Positions 5,001 to 13,338 of a DNA stretch of 64,000 nucleotides are shown here, piece by piece. Location: NCBI GenBank assembly GCA_001821765.1, contig MHOA01000008.1, positions 167 through 64,166 on the forward strand, in the 5' to 3' direction. The position numbers and the translations under genes are program-made. The notes below the pieces were generated by a model that did no database searches, was not told the origin of the DNA, and saw only the letters and a program-made list of their open reading frames with translations. Numbering within the stretch: the first letter of the stretch is position 1; every line of letters starts with the position of its first letter. This stretch comes from Candidatus Ryanbacteria bacterium RIFCSPLOWO2_12_FULL_44_26. GTDB lineage: Bacteria > Patescibacteriota > Minisyncoccia > Ryanbacterales > HO2-45-13.

Positions 5001-5471
5001 ATGCGACATGTAAAAGCAGGGAATAAAGCGCCGGATTTTTCCGGAAAAGACCAAAACGGCAACATCCATAGGATTTCCGACCATAAAGGAACATGGGTGC
5101 TGCTGTATTTTTATCCCAAAGACGACACACCCGGATGCACAAAAGAGGCATGCTCCATTCGGGATACACATAAAACCTTTAAAGAAAAAAATGTCGTGGT
5201 ACTTAGAGTAAGTAAAGACTCCGTTGAGAGCCATAAAAAGTTTGCAGACAAATACACGCTCCCCTTCACCTTGATTGCTGATCCGGAGAAAATTATTGTG
5301 AAACGCTACGGCGTTTGGAAAAAGAAAAAATTTCTTGGAAGAGCATATATGGGAACGGCGCGGGAGTCTTTTTTAATAAATCCGAAAGGCGTCATTGCAA
5401 AAGTATATGAAAAAGTCAAACCGGCCGAGCACGCCGACGAAGTACTTGTTGATGTAAATACACTTGCGTAA
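5001..5471 (+). CDS. bcp: Thiol peroxidase, Bcp-type peroxiredoxin.
   Basis: APDF...LYFYPKDDTPGCTKEAC is the peroxiredoxin/AhpC-TSA active-site context. Size is 156 aa. Confidence 0.9.
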   Translation: MRHVKAGNKAPDFSGKDQNGNIHRISDHKGTWVLLYFYPKDDTPGCTKEACSIRDTHKTFKEKNVVVLRVSKDSVESHKKFADKYTLPFTLIADPEKIIVKRYGVWKKKKFLGRAYMGTARESFLINPKGVIAKVYEKVKPAEHADEVLVDVNTLA

Positions 5472-5872: not shown

Positions 5873-6181
5873 ATGATAAAGTTTTTTGCGCCGGCGACCT
5901 TTAAAGTAACTGGTTGATATTATTTTACCAAATATTGATATTATTGTAACCGTAAATCATATAGTTCCCATATAATACTGGCGCGCAATCACTCAAACGG
6001 AACTTCAATGCTCTGCTGGCTGTCTTTTATGAAACTGCGAACGAGTATATAGGATATTTATACAACACAACCTTTTTCACCGACAAGTAGGCTTGCATTG
6101 AGACGGAAATGAAGATTTAGAGACTATATAAAAATTGACACTGGCATACTCTCCGGTAAGATACGTCTATAAGAAAACCTC

Positions 6182-6340
6182 ATGGAAAAAGAACCTGAAA
6201 AACCAAAAAGACGGCCCTGCATGCAATTAGGCCACTGTGATTTTATAAGAGATGGTGATGAATTCAGATGCACGAAATGCAGGATAAGAGTTAAAATTCA
6301 CCAAGAAAATAATCCGCCCCTACAAAAACCTGAGCAATAA
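6182..6340 (+). CDS. Tiny Cys-pair (zinc-ribbon-like) protein, 52 aa, hypothetical.
   Basis: ATG at 6182. The protein MEKEPEKPKRRPCMQLGHCDFIRDGDEFRCTKCRIRVKIHQENNPPLQKPEQ has C-x5-C...C-x2-C. It is below the 60-aa cut-off of the ORF track. A TTGACA-N17-TAAGAT promoter-like sequence lies at 6135-6163. Confidence 0.25.
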   Translation: MEKEPEKPKRRPCMQLGHCDFIRDGDEFRCTKCRIRVKIHQENNPPLQKPEQ

Positions 6341-9081: not shown

Positions 9082-10062
9082 TTACTGTAGTGCTTCTTTT
9101 AGAAGCTCTAAATTCTTCTGCATAATGAAGATGTAAGAATCTTTCGCGAGATTGCCGGTTTCTACGGGATCGAGCGCATACACTTTAAGATTCAAATCGC
9201 GCGCAATCACCTCAACGACTTTTGGAGAAAACTGCGGTTCTGAAAAAATCGCGGTGATTCCAAGCTCCCGGATAAGTTTTATTACTTCGGAAAGATAGCG
9301 CGGAGACGGTTCTTTGCCGGGAAATTCTTCAATAGTTGCCGCTTCATTAAGCCCGTAGCGCTTAGCAAAATATTGGAACGCGGAATGAAACGCGATGAAA
9401 TCTTTCTTGGAAAGTTTGGCAATCGCTTCTCGAATCTCTTGATCAAGCGCGCGGAGTTCCTCAATATACCGTTCCGCGTTCTTATGATACAAATCGGCAT
9501 TTTCTGGATCGTTGGCGATGAATGCGTCGCGGATATTTCCAACCTGAATAATCGCATTATTGGGGTCAAGCCAGATGTGCGGATCAACAGGGCCGTGTTC
9601 ATCTTCCTTATGCCATTCACCTTCTTTAAGTTCTATGCCTTTAGTGGGGGTAATGGTGGTAATGCCTTTGCTGGTATCGATTACTTCAATATCAGTGTGA
9701 TCGCTTGAGGCAATCAGGTCATCGAGCACCGGTTCAAGACCGGCCCCGTTTTTAATCACCATATCGGCATTGTTGATTTTCTGAATATCGGCCGGGAGGA
9801 AGGAAGAAACTTCGGGGGTTTGGCTAAAAAGCATATCAAGCCCGATTCGACTCCCGCCCACTTGTTTTGCGAAATCGTACATTGGGAAAAATGTCGTAAG
9901 CACCCGCAATCCTGATTCCGATTGCGAAACAGGCGTTTCTTTCGGGGCGAAAATCCCGCTTCCCCAAAAGAAACTTAAAAGTCCGATAAAGATGAAACCA
10001 GCGATCACCAGAAGCTCTATAATTCTTTTTTGTTTCACCCGGTTAAAAATTTGTGTACTCAT
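9082..10062 (-). CDS. Metal-binding periplasmic/solute-binding protein, ZnuA/TroA family.
   Basis: N-terminal TM/signal peptide. DPHIWLDP and FHSAFQYFAKRYGL motifs are typical of cluster-9 SBPs. It is adjacent to the ATPase and permease. Confidence 0.8.
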   Translation of the reverse strand: MSTQIFNRVKQKRIIELLVIAGFIFIGLLSFFWGSGIFAPKETPVSQSESGLRVLTTFFPMYDFAKQVGGSRIGLDMLFSQTPEVSSFLPADIQKINNADMVIKNGAGLEPVLDDLIASSDHTDIEVIDTSKGITTITPTKGIELKEGEWHKEDEHGPVDPHIWLDPNNAIIQVGNIRDAFIANDPENADLYHKNAERYIEELRALDQEIREAIAKLSKKDFIAFHSAFQYFAKRYGLNEAATIEEFPGKEPSPRYLSEVIKLIRELGITAIFSEPQFSPKVVEVIARDLNLKVYALDPVETGNLAKDSYIFIMQKNLELLKEALQ

Positions 10063-10308
10063 ATCAGTTTATGATATTACTCCCCTTTAGATCAATATGT
10101 TCAATTTCTAACAGGGTTCCATAATAATTTATCTTTTAGTTATTAATTTGTTGTCGCATGATTTGCAAACCCCGAAAAGATCTAGCGCGCGAGCCTTTAC
10201 GGCATTGAATTGTGATGGCTTTCGAAAGTTTGATTGGGCGGAAGAATATAAGTATCCCACCGTTATCTTGGAACAAATGAACCAACTGCTCACCGAATGC
10301 CGAGAGGA

Positions 10309-10575
10309 TCAACCCGTTTCTGCCCCGTAATTGTTTACCCCGTAAGAAGCCGTAGGCTTACAATCCTTCTGAGGAGTACCCAAGGTTAAAAACAATTCTA
10401 CAATCTCGTAGTCATGAAAACCACCTAGTCCTGATTGCAGAAATCTTTCCCGAAGGCGCTTTCTATGCCCTTCGCTTTTGTGTTTTTCACTCGTTTTATC
10501 AACTTTTGGCGCTTCGACTTTGTTTACAGTGAGCATAGTCGAACCGCTCAGCATAAATAAATCCTTGATTTTCAT
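10309..10575 (-). pseudogene. RadC-like (UPF0758) N-terminal fragment lacking the JAB/MPN domain; likely a truncated remnant.
   Basis: MKIKDL...HRKRLRERFLQSGLGGFHDYEIVELFLTLGTPQKD matches the RadC N-terminal pattern (MxIKDLP..ERPRERL..G...LSD.ELLAILL.TG). The ORF stops after 88 aa. No HNHPSG-type motif is present in any downstream frame. Confidence 0.4.
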
Positions 10576-10576
10576 T

Positions 10577-10933
10577 TTATAAATCAGCGATGTAAGTTTT
10601 GATAAACTTTTCAGTTGCTCGAACTGTTTCTTCTTTTAACTTTGGGTTTGACTCCGCTACCCATTTTGCAAAATTATATAGTTCTTGGTTATCAACCCGT
10701 AGCCACTTCTTATTTCTGTATAAAAAATAAAGCATAGTGGTCATTGCGATTCGTTTGTTGCCGTTCTGAAAAGGATGATTCTTAACCATTAAATAAAAAA
10801 GAGTGGCGGTTTTATTCAGCAAACCCCTATATGCATGTTTTCTCTGAAAAGTCTGGAATGGTACAGCTAAACAGCTTTCTAGAATATTCGGAAATCTAGT
10901 TTCAAAGGACGGAATCGGTTCATTCCATTTCAT
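10577..10933 (-). CDS. doc: Doc (death-on-curing) family toxin with a Fic fold.
   Basis: The HPFQNGNKR motif fits the Doc signature HxFx(D/N)(A/G)NKR. Size is 118 aa. It lies immediately downstream of a small HTH gene. Confidence 0.75.
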   Translation of the reverse strand: MKWNEPIPSFETRFPNILESCLAVPFQTFQRKHAYRGLLNKTATLFYLMVKNHPFQNGNKRIAMTTMLYFLYRNKKWLRVDNQELYNFAKWVAESNPKLKEETVRATEKFIKTYIADL

Positions 10934-10989
10934 GGTTTCTTTCGCCAGACGAAAAGCAACATATTCTACCTCTCCTATAGTCAGCGATT

Positions 10990-11244
10990 TTATTCTTGTC
11001 CTAAGAGCCGCAATGTTTTTCCATATTCCTTAACAGCTTTCTTTACAGCAGCTTCAATGGCGTTCTTTTTTTCTTCTGTGAGAGTTTTCCCTAGGATATC
11101 GGGTAAATCGTTTTTATGAATGGCAAAATTACGGCCAATTTTTCGGGCCTTTATGGCGCCGGATTTAATTTTCTTAAAAACCGCTATTCGGCTTATACCC
11201 AATAACTTCGCCACCTCGCTTGTGGAAAGAAATTCTTTGTCCAT
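10990..11244 (-). CDS. Small excisionase-family HTH DNA-binding protein. It is a putative antitoxin to Doc, or alternatively the Xis-like factor of the decayed element.
   Basis: LSTSEVAKLLGISRIAVFKKIKSGAIKARKIGRNFAIHKNDL is a typical HTH_17/Xis-type domain. Size is 84 aa. It sits 56 nt upstream of doc on the same strand. Confidence 0.55.
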   Translation of the reverse strand: MDKEFLSTSEVAKLLGISRIAVFKKIKSGAIKARKIGRNFAIHKNDLPDILGKTLTEEKKNAIEAAVKKAVKEYGKTLRLLGQE

Positions 11245-11302
11245 ATTATTGAATAATAGTCCATGTTAACTGCTGTGTCAATGGTTAACGTATGTTAATT
11301 TA

Positions 11303-11790
11303 AACCGTCTCACTCGTGTCCGGAGAAATAATCGCGAAGGTTCGAACCCCGAAGGAAAGCTCGACCTGCTTTTAGACGCTCATTTGGACGGCACGATTTC
11401 ACGCGAGGAATACACTGCCAAGAAAGAGAAACTTATTACCGAAAAGGCCGAGCTTTCCGAAAAATCAAAGGATTTTGAACGAAACGGCAATCATTGGCTC
11501 GAACCCGGCCCGGCAATTCGTTTTAGCGGCTCAACAAGCCAAAATTATCGCTTTGCAAGAAAATCCCGTCGCGAGACGGGATTTTCTCAAAAGAATTGGC
11601 TCGAACCACGCCCGGCAATTCGTTTTAGCGGCTCAACAAGCCAAAATTATCGCTTTGCAAGAAAATCCCGTCGCGAGACGGGATTTTCTCAAAAGAATTG
11701 GCTCGAACCACGTTTTGCGCTCCCAAGCGATTTGCTTTGAACCCAAAAAGTCGTGGAAAATTCTCGCCGATTTGCCCGCCGACCCCGCCG
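11303..11790 (+). pseudogene. Decayed C-terminal remnant of a large serine recombinase (coiled-coil/tail region only), carrying a frameshift and a tandem duplication.
   Basis: Frame A reads ...LDLLLDAHLDGTISREEYTAKKEKLITEKAELSEKSKDFERNGNHWLEP, the recombinase C-terminal coiled-coil pattern. The tail continues in another frame (EPARQFVLAAQQAKIIALQENPVARRDFLKRIGSNHVLRSQ...). No catalytic N-terminal domain lies upstream; a stop occurs at 11300. Confidence 0.5.
11494..11712 (+). repeat. 102-bp tandem direct repeat (2 full copies plus a 15-nt partial third) inside the recombinase remnant.
   Basis: Copies are at 11494-11595 and 11596-11697 and differ by a 2-nt substitution. The unit is bounded by the 13-nt microhomology ATTGGCTCGAACC. 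Each copy contains the hairpin CCCGTCGCGAGACGGG. Confidence 0.9.
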
Positions 11791-11822
11791 TGGCGGGGGA
11801 GGTGAACTCGTATCATCCTATT

Positions 11823-11897
11823 TGGCTCCGCGGGCAGGACTCGAACCTGCAACCAACGCGTTAACAGCGCGCTGCTCTACCATTGAGCTACCGCGGA
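11823..11897 (-). tRNA. tRNA-Asn (anticodon GTT), CCA encoded.
   Basis: Reverse complement is TCCGCGG-TA-GCTCAATGGTAGAGC-A-GCGCG-CTGTTAA-CGCGT-TGGTT-GCAGGTTCGAGTCCTGC-CCGCGGA-G-CCA. Cloverleaf folded by eye. Confidence 0.85.
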
Positions 11898-12102
11898 CTA
11901 GATGCACTAAAAGTGCAACGAATAACTCATTACAAATAACGAATAACAAACGGCCACTCAACAGTATACGATTATTCCGGCGATTTATCAAATACCGGGA
12001 TTGTTTACCAGTATTAAAACAAAACTTGCGCGCATTCCTATATACCTATAACCCTTGAAAACGAAACACCGTTATTCGTTACCAGTACAGACGAACAGGA
12101 CA

Positions 12103-13338
12103 TTAATATCCTGTTAGTCTGTCCGACTTTCTGTGCTGACGGATTTTTTCAATTGCTTTCGCTTCAATCTGACGGATGCGTTCACGCGTCACTCCAAACT
12201 CTCTCCCCACCTCCTCAAGCGTATGTGTAATGCTGTCATCAAGACCAAACCGCATGCGCAAAATTTTCTGCTCTCGCGGAAGAAGATCTTCAATGATCGC
12301 CCGTATCTGGTCTTTAAGCAATTCTCGCGACGTCTGGTCAGCCGGCGAGAGTACTTTTTCATCTTCAATAAATTCACTTAAGGTGGAATCTTCTTCATCT
12401 TCTCCGACCGGCATTTCAAGAGAAATGGTTTCTTGAGAAATCTTCATAATATGATGTATCTTCTCCGGCTCCATTCCCATCTCCGCTGCAATCTCTTCCG
12501 GGAGCGGCTCGCGTCCCAAGTCTTGTGTGAGGCGTCGCCGCATCTGATGGAATTTTGAAATAGTTTCCACCATATGCACCGGTATTCGGATAGTGCGCGC
12601 CTGATCCGCAATCGCTCTGGTAATTGCCTGCCGGATCCACCACGTCGCATACGTTGAAAATTTAAATCCGCGCCTCCAGTCGAATTTCTCAACCGCGCGA
12701 AAAAGCCCGATATTTCCTTCTTGAACAAGATCAAGCAGTGAAAGATTATGACTTCTCCCCACATATTTTTTCGCGATTGAAACAACAAGCCGCAAGTTTG
12801 CCTGTGCTAAGCGTTTTCTGGACTCAATGTCTCCTTTTTCTATCCGCTTTGCAAGCTCCCGCTCTCCTTCGGCAGTAAGAAGCGGGATGCGTCCTATCTC
12901 CTTTAAGTACATCTGCACCGAGTCATAATGTTCCGTGCCGGTGAGCATCTCTTCAAATTTTTTCTTCATTATTCCTTCCCTCTTTGACGGGCTTTTTTCC
13001 TTTTTTTCCTTCTCCAACTCAATAAGGTTTTTTACTTCCAGCACATCAATATGGAGATCCGAAAGACGCGCATACAACTCCTCTAACCGGAAAATGTCGT
13101 CCTCAATATGGGGAAAGAGATTTAAAATTTCAGCATAGGTAACAGCACCACGCTCTTTACCTTTTTTTTCCAAGATTGCGAACTTTTTCTCAAATTCCTC
13201 CTGTTTTCGGCTGTTTCTTTTTTTCTTCTGCTCTTTTTTCTTATCGACACGACCCGTGGGCATATCCTCCTGTCTTGTTTTCTTTTTTGGAGCACCTGTT
13301 TTCTTTCTTGTTTTTATCGCGCTTTTTCCTTTTCTCAT
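12103..13338 (-). CDS. rpoD: RNA polymerase sigma-70 factor RpoD (primary sigma) with a Lys-rich basic N-terminal extension.
   Basis: Region 2/3/4 motifs are present: [54 protein letters not shown] and a C-terminal HTH. It sits downstream of dnaG. Confidence 0.95.

Follow-up and report, generated by a model that had tools for sequence, protein, structure and literature searches.

A Doc toxin gene coupled to an excisionase-fold helix-turn-helix gene in Candidatus Ryanbacteria: a probable toxin-antitoxin module that recurs in uncultivated bacteria

Introduction

Phd is the textbook antitoxin partner of Doc toxins, and type II antitoxins act on their own promoter. That the DNA-binding folds of antitoxins mix among toxin families is a well-established principle. 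Here, a two-gene unit is described in which a Doc-family protein is encoded together with a helix-turn-helix (HTH) protein of excisionase type, found in the place of Phd. The unit is located on the minus strand of a 64,000 nucleotide (nt) stretch of the genome of Candidatus Ryanbacteria bacterium RIFCSPLOWO2_12_FULL_44_26 [GenBank assembly GCA_001821765.1; contig MHOA01000008.1, positions 167 to 64,166], hereafter the window, and all positions are given in window coordinates. The pair is probably an autonomous, horizontally mobile type II toxin-antitoxin (TA) operon with a non-Phd, autoregulating antitoxin, and a probability of about 0.72 is assigned to this interpretation.

Doc phosphorylates EF-Tu on Thr382, and Phd occupies the nucleoside triphosphate (NTP) site of Doc, according to PMC7758455. 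In the NetFlax study (PMC10440598), experiments established that a short C-terminal helical element, Phd-C, suffices to neutralise Doc and is portable onto unrelated N-terminal domains, which makes an antitoxin built from an HTH domain and a C-terminal helix plausible. PanA(Phd-C)-Doc from Corynebacterium doosanense, from the same study, likewise carries a short C-terminal helical neutraliser on an unrelated N-terminal domain. There, the N-terminal domain is Panacea (DUF4065) and the element is Phd-C-like, whereas the protein described here combines HTH_17 with a C-terminal helix that has no detectable similarity to Phd.

Makarova et al. 2009 (PMC2701414) give AbrB, Xre, YhfG and Phd as partners of Fic/Doc proteins, with MerR/HTH_17 not among them, and place truncated MerR-like HTH antitoxins with PIN toxins only. 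A pair composed of HTH_17 and COG2856 is listed in one genome paper (PMC5720513). Both arrangements resemble the present one in that a MerR/excisionase-like HTH protein serves as antitoxin or regulator of a two-gene module, but the toxin partners differ and the PIN-associated family has an extra small domain at its N-terminus. In the class I Fic pairs, VbhT-VbhA and FicT-FicA, a Fic-fold toxin is likewise inhibited by a small helical partner. However, the class I pairs are marked by the AMPylation motif HPFx(D/E)GNGRxxR in the toxin and by an inhibitory helix with (S/T)xxxE(G/N) in the antitoxin. Neither is seen here on inspection of the consensus, the inhibitory motif being missing from both the window protein and the family consensus. 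No description of an HTH_17-Doc pair was found in the literature searched, which included Makarova 2009, NetFlax, TASmania, a Klebsiella TA survey and a review of toxins that act by post-translational modification.

The closest described relative is therefore taken to be Phd-Doc of P1. The two systems share the toxin family (TIGR01550), a Doc-type motif and a small, predicted all-helical toxin. The antitoxin gene is first and the toxin gene second, with translational coupling, and the antitoxin has an N-terminal DNA-binding part and a C-terminal helical part, with a palindromic operator at its own promoter. They differ in that the candidate antitoxin here is an Xis/MerR-like winged HTH protein without sequence or fold relation to Phd/YefM, and the helix that is its candidate neutraliser has a motif of its own, EYGETLxLLGxE. 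The toxin, described here from sequence alone, aligns to P1 Doc with ∼34% identity, and does so just around the active-site loop (hhalign E=7e-5). Furthermore, the module described here is found on chromosomes of uncultivated bacteria, while that of P1 belongs to a plasmid prophage.

Results

Proteins encoded by the pair

A sequence-only reading of the window had recorded two minus-strand open reading frames (ORFs) of 118 and 84 amino acids (aa), and these are present at 10577..10933 and 10990..11244, respectively. The annotated 118 aa ORF had been assigned to the Doc family of the Fic fold, and the profile searches agree with this. It matches Pfam Fic (PF02661) with E=9.9e-10 and 39.6 bits (cut-off 24 bits), and NCBIfam TIGR01550 (DOC_P1), entitled 'type II toxin-antitoxin system death-on-curing family toxin', with E=3e-14 and 53.3 bits (cut-off 38.65 bits). 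The HPFQNGNKR signature pointed out in the same reading was confirmed directly from the sequence at 10751..10777 on the minus strand. It predicts a catalytic loop that is a Doc-type variant of the Fic motif and aligns to HIFNDANKR of P1 Doc. Loop residues H73, P74, F75, N77, G78, N79, K80 and R81 are invariant over the 41 family members compared. Castro-Roa et al. are said to have described in 2013 a Doc motif HxFx(D/N)(A/G)NKR, in which Lys replaces the Gly of AMPylating Fic proteins and the second Arg is missing. The loop found here, HPFQNGNKR followed by IAM, follows the Doc pattern in that it contains NKR and lacks a second Arg downstream.

Structures were predicted as single-chain AlphaFold2 (AF2) models. 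That of the toxin contains six helices and is of low confidence, with a mean predicted local distance difference test (pLDDT) score of 62 and values below 50 in the N-terminal half. When this low-confidence model was ranked against the PDB using Foldseek, P1 Doc (3k33/3kh2/3dd7) was at the top with template modelling (TM) scores of 0.48-0.69 and a probability of 1.0, followed by Fic proteins. Sequence searches of solved structures gave marginal matches only, for the toxin and the HTH protein alike. Kinase activity, EF-Tu as the target, and toxicity are expected of the protein by analogy with its family. The EF-Tu of one module-carrying host from the Candidate Phyla Radiation (CPR) retains REGGKTVGAG around the presumed target Thr.

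The upstream gene (10990..11244, minus strand; stop codon TAA at 10990-10992) predicts an 84 aa protein that matches Pfam HTH_17 (E=2.1e-7, 31.5 bits; cut-off 27 bits) and TIGR01764 'excise', the excisionase family DNA-binding protein (E=4.3e-9, 36.6 bits; cut-off 28.8 bits). The AF2 model (pLDDT 81) begins with a β-α-α-β-β-α winged HTH, which a short linker connects to a single long helix at residues 57-83. The predicted DNA-binding domain occupies residues 5-50 (11095..11232, minus strand), with the profile match covering residues 5-47, and is composed of strands at 5-7, 33-36 and 39-43 and helices at 8-15, 19-28 and 44-50. Its nearest solved folds according to Foldseek are the excisionase RdfS (8dgl), with a root-mean-square deviation (rmsd) of 1.9 Å over 53 columns and 30% identity, BldC, and Xis of mycobacteriophage Pukovnik (4j2n). 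For the matches to excisionase-like folds as a group, the probability is 1.0 and rmsd values are 1.6-3.1 Å over about 50 residues. Hence, the partner is of Xis type at the level of the fold, as had been suggested. The claim that it is not a Phd-fold protein also held, as the Pfam and NCBIfam searches, read to E≤1, gave no match to Phd/YefM, including PF02604, and the hhalign probability for P1 Phd was 1%.

Residues 57-84 (10993..11076, minus strand) form a predicted amphipathic C-terminal helix with the motif EYG(E/K)TL(K/R)LLG(K/Q)E. This 28-residue helix is not present in the matched RdfS, Xis and BldC chains, which are 51-69 residues long. The mean pairwise identity over 78 sequences of the HTH protein is highest for residues 65-84 (68%), with 53% in the HTH domain and 34% in the linker, compared with 67% for Doc. 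Thus, the last 20 residues are the best conserved part of the protein, with the consensus ...AVKKTVKEYGETL(K/R)LLG(K/Q)E, abbreviated EYGETLxLLGxE. The helix is proposed as a candidate element for toxin binding, dimerisation or both. None of the NCBIfam, Pfam or PADLOC models classes the 84 aa protein as an antitoxin, and in public annotation it is named only 'helix-turn-helix domain-containing protein' or 'excisionase family DNA binding protein'.

Conservation of the pair in related genomes

A species-level scan, with one genome per species, detected relatives of the Doc protein in at least 526 genomes, and the best 80 loci from these (L001-L080) were compared. Most are metagenome-assembled genomes (MAGs) of Patescibacteria, and the rest are labelled Omnitrophota, Acidobacteriota/Aminicenantes, Planctomycetota or Elusimicrobia. 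One module-carrying bin is labelled Bathyarchaeia. An exact protein match comes from a Candidatus Ryanbacteria MAG, a member of the CPR/Parcubacteria, and the first entry among the Doc homologues, P0001, is the window protein. Across MAGs of different phylum labels, identity to the window proteins is 63-84% for Doc and 48-76% for the HTH protein. This is unusually high for a TA pair, and it would mean that the pair has recently been transferred horizontally over a wide range, that it is strongly constrained, or that contigs are mis-binned.

Sequence upstream of Doc was available for 78 loci, and all 78 include a full-length homologue of the HTH gene directly upstream and on the same strand. 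The junction could be measured in 77 loci. The two genes overlap by 4 nt (ATGA) in 15 of these and by 1 nt (TAATG) in 21, and they are no more than 18 nt apart in the remainder. Pairwise distance matrices for the HTH and Doc proteins are correlated (Mantel r=0.61), with none of 999 permutations giving a value as high, in keeping with a shared evolutionary history of the two proteins. The sequence-only reading had called the pairing unusual, but these loci indicate that an HTH partner is the rule for this Doc subfamily and has simply not been recognised in annotation. Locus L046 includes the HTH gene twice (2726-2971 and 6041-6292), approximately 3.3 kb apart, which suggests that some organisms have more than one module per genome.

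The genes that neighbour the pair are unrelated from locus to locus, and annotated neighbourhoods are without an integrase or recombinase. For example, the pair follows fusA-tuf-rpsJ in one context, uvrB and an MmeI-like restriction-modification methylase in another, and rpoC in a third. These contexts bear on the second of two options that had been offered for the partner, namely a non-canonical antitoxin or a recombination directionality factor (RDF) co-opted from a decayed element. According to the RDF option, the HTH protein would be an excisionase left behind by the element at the adjacent tRNA-Asn, and would have come to lie beside Doc by chance or through recent co-option. The domain does belong to the excisionase family, with TIGR01764 above its cut-off and the same winged HTH fold as the excisionases and RDFs (lambda and Pukovnik Xis, RdfS, TorI) and the Xis-like BldC, and a serine-recombinase remnant and tRNA-Asn are located within 600 bp. 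However, the pair is a two-gene unit in all 78 related loci, the contexts inspected have no adjoining recombinase, and neither a partner recombinase nor an association with attachment (att) sites was seen. The conserved site near the gene is not a set of att-type repeats; it is palindromic and lies on the promoter of that gene. The protein also differs from excisionases in its conserved 28-residue C-terminal helix and its strict coupling to a toxin gene, and the local remnant is that of a serine recombinase on the opposite strand. Because the pair recurs in places on the chromosome that are unrelated to one another and lack an adjacent recombinase, the RDF option is rejected as highly improbable. 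The antitoxin option is strongly supported by the adjacency in all 78 loci, the gene overlap, the shared history, the operator and the C-terminal helix.

In L086-L089 (2028-4420), from a Parcubacteria lineage, the pair is directly 3′ of fusA-tuf-rpsJ and so is adjacent to the gene for EF-Tu, the presumed target of Doc. A YafQ-type toxin pair comes after the HTH-Doc pair in these loci.

Company of this kind, in which an MmeI-like restriction-modification gene adjoins one set of loci and a YafQ-type TA pair another, would also suit a module that is chiefly an abortive-infection system against phages and not one for addiction or persistence. The Doc domain matches the PADLOC candidates PDC-S23 (E=4e-20), PDC-S05 and PDC-M59B. 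However, these matches span only the Doc domain that is shared with longer RhuM-like proteins of ∼290-330 aa, and the HTH protein matches mad1 only weakly (E=1.9e-5). A chiefly anti-phage role appears rather unlikely, and since it is compatible with a TA operon that works as proposed here, it does not constitute a true alternative.

Predicted promoter and candidate operator

A σ70-type promoter composed of TTGACA, a 17 nt spacer and TATTAT is predicted at 11253..11281 on the minus strand. It has 11 of 12 matches, is the best-scoring site in the interval 10000-12100, and has an equal layout in L095 and L011. The -10 element and the start codon of the HTH gene (ATG) are just 8 nt apart, and no Shine-Dalgarno (SD) sequence is found in this region (11242-11258, minus strand), which suggests a leaderless or near-leaderless mRNA. 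The same is true of several Patescibacteria loci. In Acidobacteriota-type loci, the HTH gene has a GGGAG leader.

Directly upstream of the -35 element is a 16 bp near-palindrome, ATTAACATACGTTAAC (11284..11299, minus strand), which is a candidate operator with the family consensus GTTAACATATGTTAAC. A second half-site, GTTAACAT (11263..11270, minus strand), is located in the promoter spacer, a position that it also occupies in many further loci, among them L095 and L011. The candidate sites thus flank or overlap the -35 element and the spacer. These elements (11253..11299) fall just beyond positions 10577-11244, which the sequence-only reading had given for the pair. When up to one mismatch was allowed, GTTAAC-N4-GTTAAC occurred 54 times in 8.4 kb upstream of HTH genes and 3 times in 427 kb elsewhere in the related loci, an enrichment of several hundred-fold, and sites of this type were present in 48 of 77 loci. 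The candidate operator is the sole site of this kind in the 64 kb of the window. Where the hexamer differs, as in GTTGTCATATGACAAC (L028), GGTTATCATATGATAACC (L022) and CTTAACATATGTTAAG (L033), the dyad symmetry is kept, as would be expected where a dimeric repressor controls its own promoter. A palindromic variant is also present in L045. At the level of sequence, these features point to autoregulation of the operon by the HTH protein via the candidate operator.

The same features suit the main rival to a neutralising helix, in which the HTH protein would be a transcriptional repressor only, with its helix used for dimerisation and Doc controlled by its expression level or by another factor, so that there would be no antitoxin acting through protein-protein contact. 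The architecture of the operator and promoter speaks for regulation and is silent on neutralisation at the protein level. A palindrome needs a dimer, yet the Xis/BldC-type domains that are the nearest structures are monomeric folds, and MerR-type proteins dimerise through a long C-terminal helix. However, the C-terminal 20 residues are conserved to the level of Doc itself and well above the DNA-binding domain, and both the tight translational coupling and the co-occurrence in 78 of 78 loci are typical of toxin and antitoxin partners that act in stoichiometric amounts. We know of no free-standing Doc toxin without control by a protein antitoxin. A role restricted to repression is considered unlikely.

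Start codon of the toxin gene

The 118 aa listed for the toxin do not represent the full protein. More than 5,000 clustered homologues of Doc were found. Among the best 120, which were inspected for length and identity, nearly all are 137-148 aa long, and identity to the window protein is 73-84%. The typical length in the family is 138-140 aa, with an N-terminus of the form MK(S/x)(L/I)TI(A/V)EVEYVA... in the homologues read. In the window, the toxin frame is open for 20 codons upstream of the annotated Met and encodes IKSLTIGEVEYVAFRLAKET in this segment, which aligns with the conserved N-terminus of the 138-140 aa homologues and keeps the family-invariant residues E8, L16 and A17. The reading frame of family length (138 codons and a stop codon) therefore extends over 10577..10993 on the minus strand and starts with ATA where homologues have ATG. 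The predicted helix α-1 is within this frame and outside the annotated ORF.

The ATA at the position of the family Met1 codon (10993..10991) overlaps the TAA stop codon of the HTH gene, giving the junction ATAA (10990..10993, minus strand), which was examined in a survey of 80 loci and a DNA alignment with L095, L011 and L012. In the 80 loci, Doc starts with ATG, or GTG in one case, at or within a few codons of the family Met1. The closest relative, L095, has the junction TTAGGACAAGAATGAAATCG compared with TTAGGACAAGAATAAAATCG in the window, and relatives with overlapping genes, including L095, have ATGA. By this comparison, a single G>A substitution on the coding strand at 10991 is responsible for both the change of the toxin start from ATG to ATA and that of the antitoxin stop from TGA to TAA. 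The change was found only in the window when compared with 82 relatives (the 80 loci, L085 and L095). It is not a sequencing error, as four independent assemblies from different samples are 100% identical to the window across the junction. The 118 aa ORF is accordingly a gene call truncated at the N-terminus because the ATG has become ATA. P0032, also listed at 118 aa, was considered as a second loss of the start codon and set aside, as its contig has an intact in-frame ATG and the listed length is an artefact of gene calling at the contig edge.

No in-frame ATG, GTG or TTG is found upstream of codon 21 in the window toxin frame, and an SD-like AGGA remains 6 nt upstream of the ATA. If initiation occurred at the ATA, the N-terminal peptide would be (M/I)KSLTIGEVEYVAFR. 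As the only starts are a very weak ATA or the internal Met, which would give a 118 aa product without helix α-1, the toxin arm is probably attenuated in this genome, with the antitoxin or repressor arm intact. The start-codon change may reflect either recent decay or tuning.

The module could alternatively be a dying relic in this genome, with Doc a pseudogene and the HTH protein surviving as an orphan regulator or 'anti-addiction' antitoxin. The uniqueness of the ATG>ATA change, the lack of another in-frame start before codon 21, and the flanking genes, which are themselves remnants, are all in keeping with such decay. However, the toxin gene is otherwise undamaged, with no frameshift or internal stop codon and no deviation at columns that are ≥90% conserved, where the median in relatives is 2 deviations. 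The 20 'lost' codons also retain all invariant residues behind the SD-like AGGA, and the allele is stable in four assemblies of different samples. ATA is permitted, though weak, as an initiator in translation table 11, and it is conceivable that a terminating ribosome reinitiates at the ATAA. A relic is thus a real possibility, though not the favoured one, and a TA operon with a weakened toxin arm is preferred.

Flanking remnants and island edge

The sequence-only reading had placed a decayed element beside the pair, and remnants are indeed present on both sides, each outside the module. On the far side of the promoter is a frameshifted C-terminal remnant of a large serine recombinase (11300..11822, plus strand), homologues of which (P0246 and P0255) carry PF13408 Zn_ribbon_recom. 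It abuts a tRNA-Asn gene (11823-11897, minus strand) identified by tRNA search. Downstream of Doc, an 88 aa ORF (10309..10575, minus strand) resembles a truncated RadC, comprising the N-terminal UPF0758_N part without the JAB domain, although both profile matches are weak, with E=0.014 in Pfam and E=0.0019 for TIGR00608. This ORF begins 1 nt after the Doc stop codon and was considered as a third gene of the operon, but it is not conserved downstream of Doc in other loci. Neither the recombinase remnant nor the RadC remnant accompanies the pair elsewhere. Intact RadC genes are found near the HTH-Doc pair in L085 and L029.

The homologues of the recombinase remnant (P0241-P0263) are nearly all short ORFs of 89-206 aa, and most of the stronger matches are 74-96% identical. 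Those with names are from the CPR groups Azambacteria, Uhrbacteria, Roizmanbacteria and Ryanbacteria. On this evidence, the remnant looks like a conserved element end and not the product of random decay. It includes a perfect or near-perfect tandem duplication of 102 bp (11493-11696), in which each copy carries a 30 nt hairpin, AGAAAATCCCGTCGCGAGACGGGATTTTCT, followed by a T-run, resembling a terminator. Three other assemblies of the same strain (L081, L083 and L084) are 102 nt shorter at this point, so the copy number of the repeat differs among assemblies. In an Rfam scan of 9900-12200, the tRNA-Asn alone scored, and matches to miRNA families were discounted as artefacts of the hairpins in the 102 bp repeats.

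In one metagenome assembly, L082, positions 5089-5441 correspond to 11595-11897 of the window. The island and znuABC are identical, but the left edge is joined to tRNA-Arg(tcg). Past this gene, the 3′ 25 nt of the window tRNA-Asn align to a stretch of L082, a locus in which ARAGORN finds no tRNA-Asn. Further to the left are genes for a tyrosine integrase and a Band_7 protein, in place of tRNA-Asn-rpoD-dnaG. Either the island edge looks to be a recombination hot spot or the L082 assembly is chimeric.

Discussion

The features described above can be combined in a model for the control of Doc by the HTH protein. The antitoxin-repressor, probably as a dimer, would bind the 16 bp palindrome GTTAACATATGTTAAC and the further half-site, and as these overlap the σ70-type promoter of the operon, the protein would repress its own operon. 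The amphipathic helix conserved at the C-terminus (...EYGETLxLLGxE) would bind Doc and occlude its active site, a role functionally analogous to that of the C-terminal helices of Phd, although the sequences are unrelated. Translation of the toxin would be coupled to that of the antitoxin gene in relatives through the ATGA or TAATG overlap. Loss of the labile antitoxin would then free Doc, which would phosphorylate the conserved Thr of EF-Tu (T382 in Escherichia coli) and arrest translation. The analysis demonstrates family membership, the conservation of the pair, the overlap of the genes, the layout of operator and promoter, and the altered start codon, whereas DNA binding by the HTH domain, neutralisation through the C-terminal helix, toxicity and the EF-Tu target are inferred.

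Several points weigh against this interpretation. Position 5 of the active-site motif is Asn, where P1 Doc has Asp, and for this reason kinase activity and specificity for EF-Tu are assumed from the family. Evidence for the fold of the toxin comes chiefly from sequence profiles, given the low confidence of the AF2 model. The C-terminal helix could serve MerR-style dimerisation and not neutralisation, and the proposed contact between the HTH protein and Doc is drawn from a conserved helix and a single-chain model. In the window, the toxin may not be produced at all. No close relative was found on the phage contigs of IMG/VR by a single-protein scan or a family-alignment scan, and no close relative at ≥60% identity was found on plasmids. 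The best plasmid Doc genes are less than 38% identical and either have AbrB- or Phd-type neighbours or are themselves RhuM-like, and a full-length homologue of the HTH protein was not seen on any plasmid. With no close relative on a phage or plasmid, classical plasmid-addiction behaviour is a supposition.

A broader proposal is that the 84 aa protein founds a new antitoxin family, in which an Xis-fold DNA-binding domain is joined to a Doc-neutralising helix unrelated to Phd-C. Together with the conserved Doc protein (63-84% identity), it would constitute the prevalent Doc-type TA module of the CPR/Patescibacteria and other uncultivated lineages, spreading horizontally as a self-contained cassette of promoter, operator and two genes. 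The chances of this proposal in full are regarded as even. The unrecognised antitoxin family and its candidate neutralising motif are what is new here, the toxin family and the operon logic being already known.

In principle, the module holds no surprise for a TA specialist, and the general picture of TA function is unchanged. Nevertheless, a large Doc subfamily is defined, with relatives in at least 526 species-level genomes, thousands of protein clusters and a partner of a different fold. Half of each HTH-Doc module has been invisible to TA surveys because pipelines name the partner only 'helix-turn-helix' or 'excisionase'. The module provides a defined operator sequence, a motif that is a candidate for neutralisation and a natural variant of the start codon, and it fits the view of antitoxins as interchangeable DNA-binding domains joined to short toxin-specific helices. 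The HTH-Doc module is widespread and unannotated, the copy in the window represents an informative natural lesion of the start codon, and ultra-small CPR genomes keep and exchange such cassettes.

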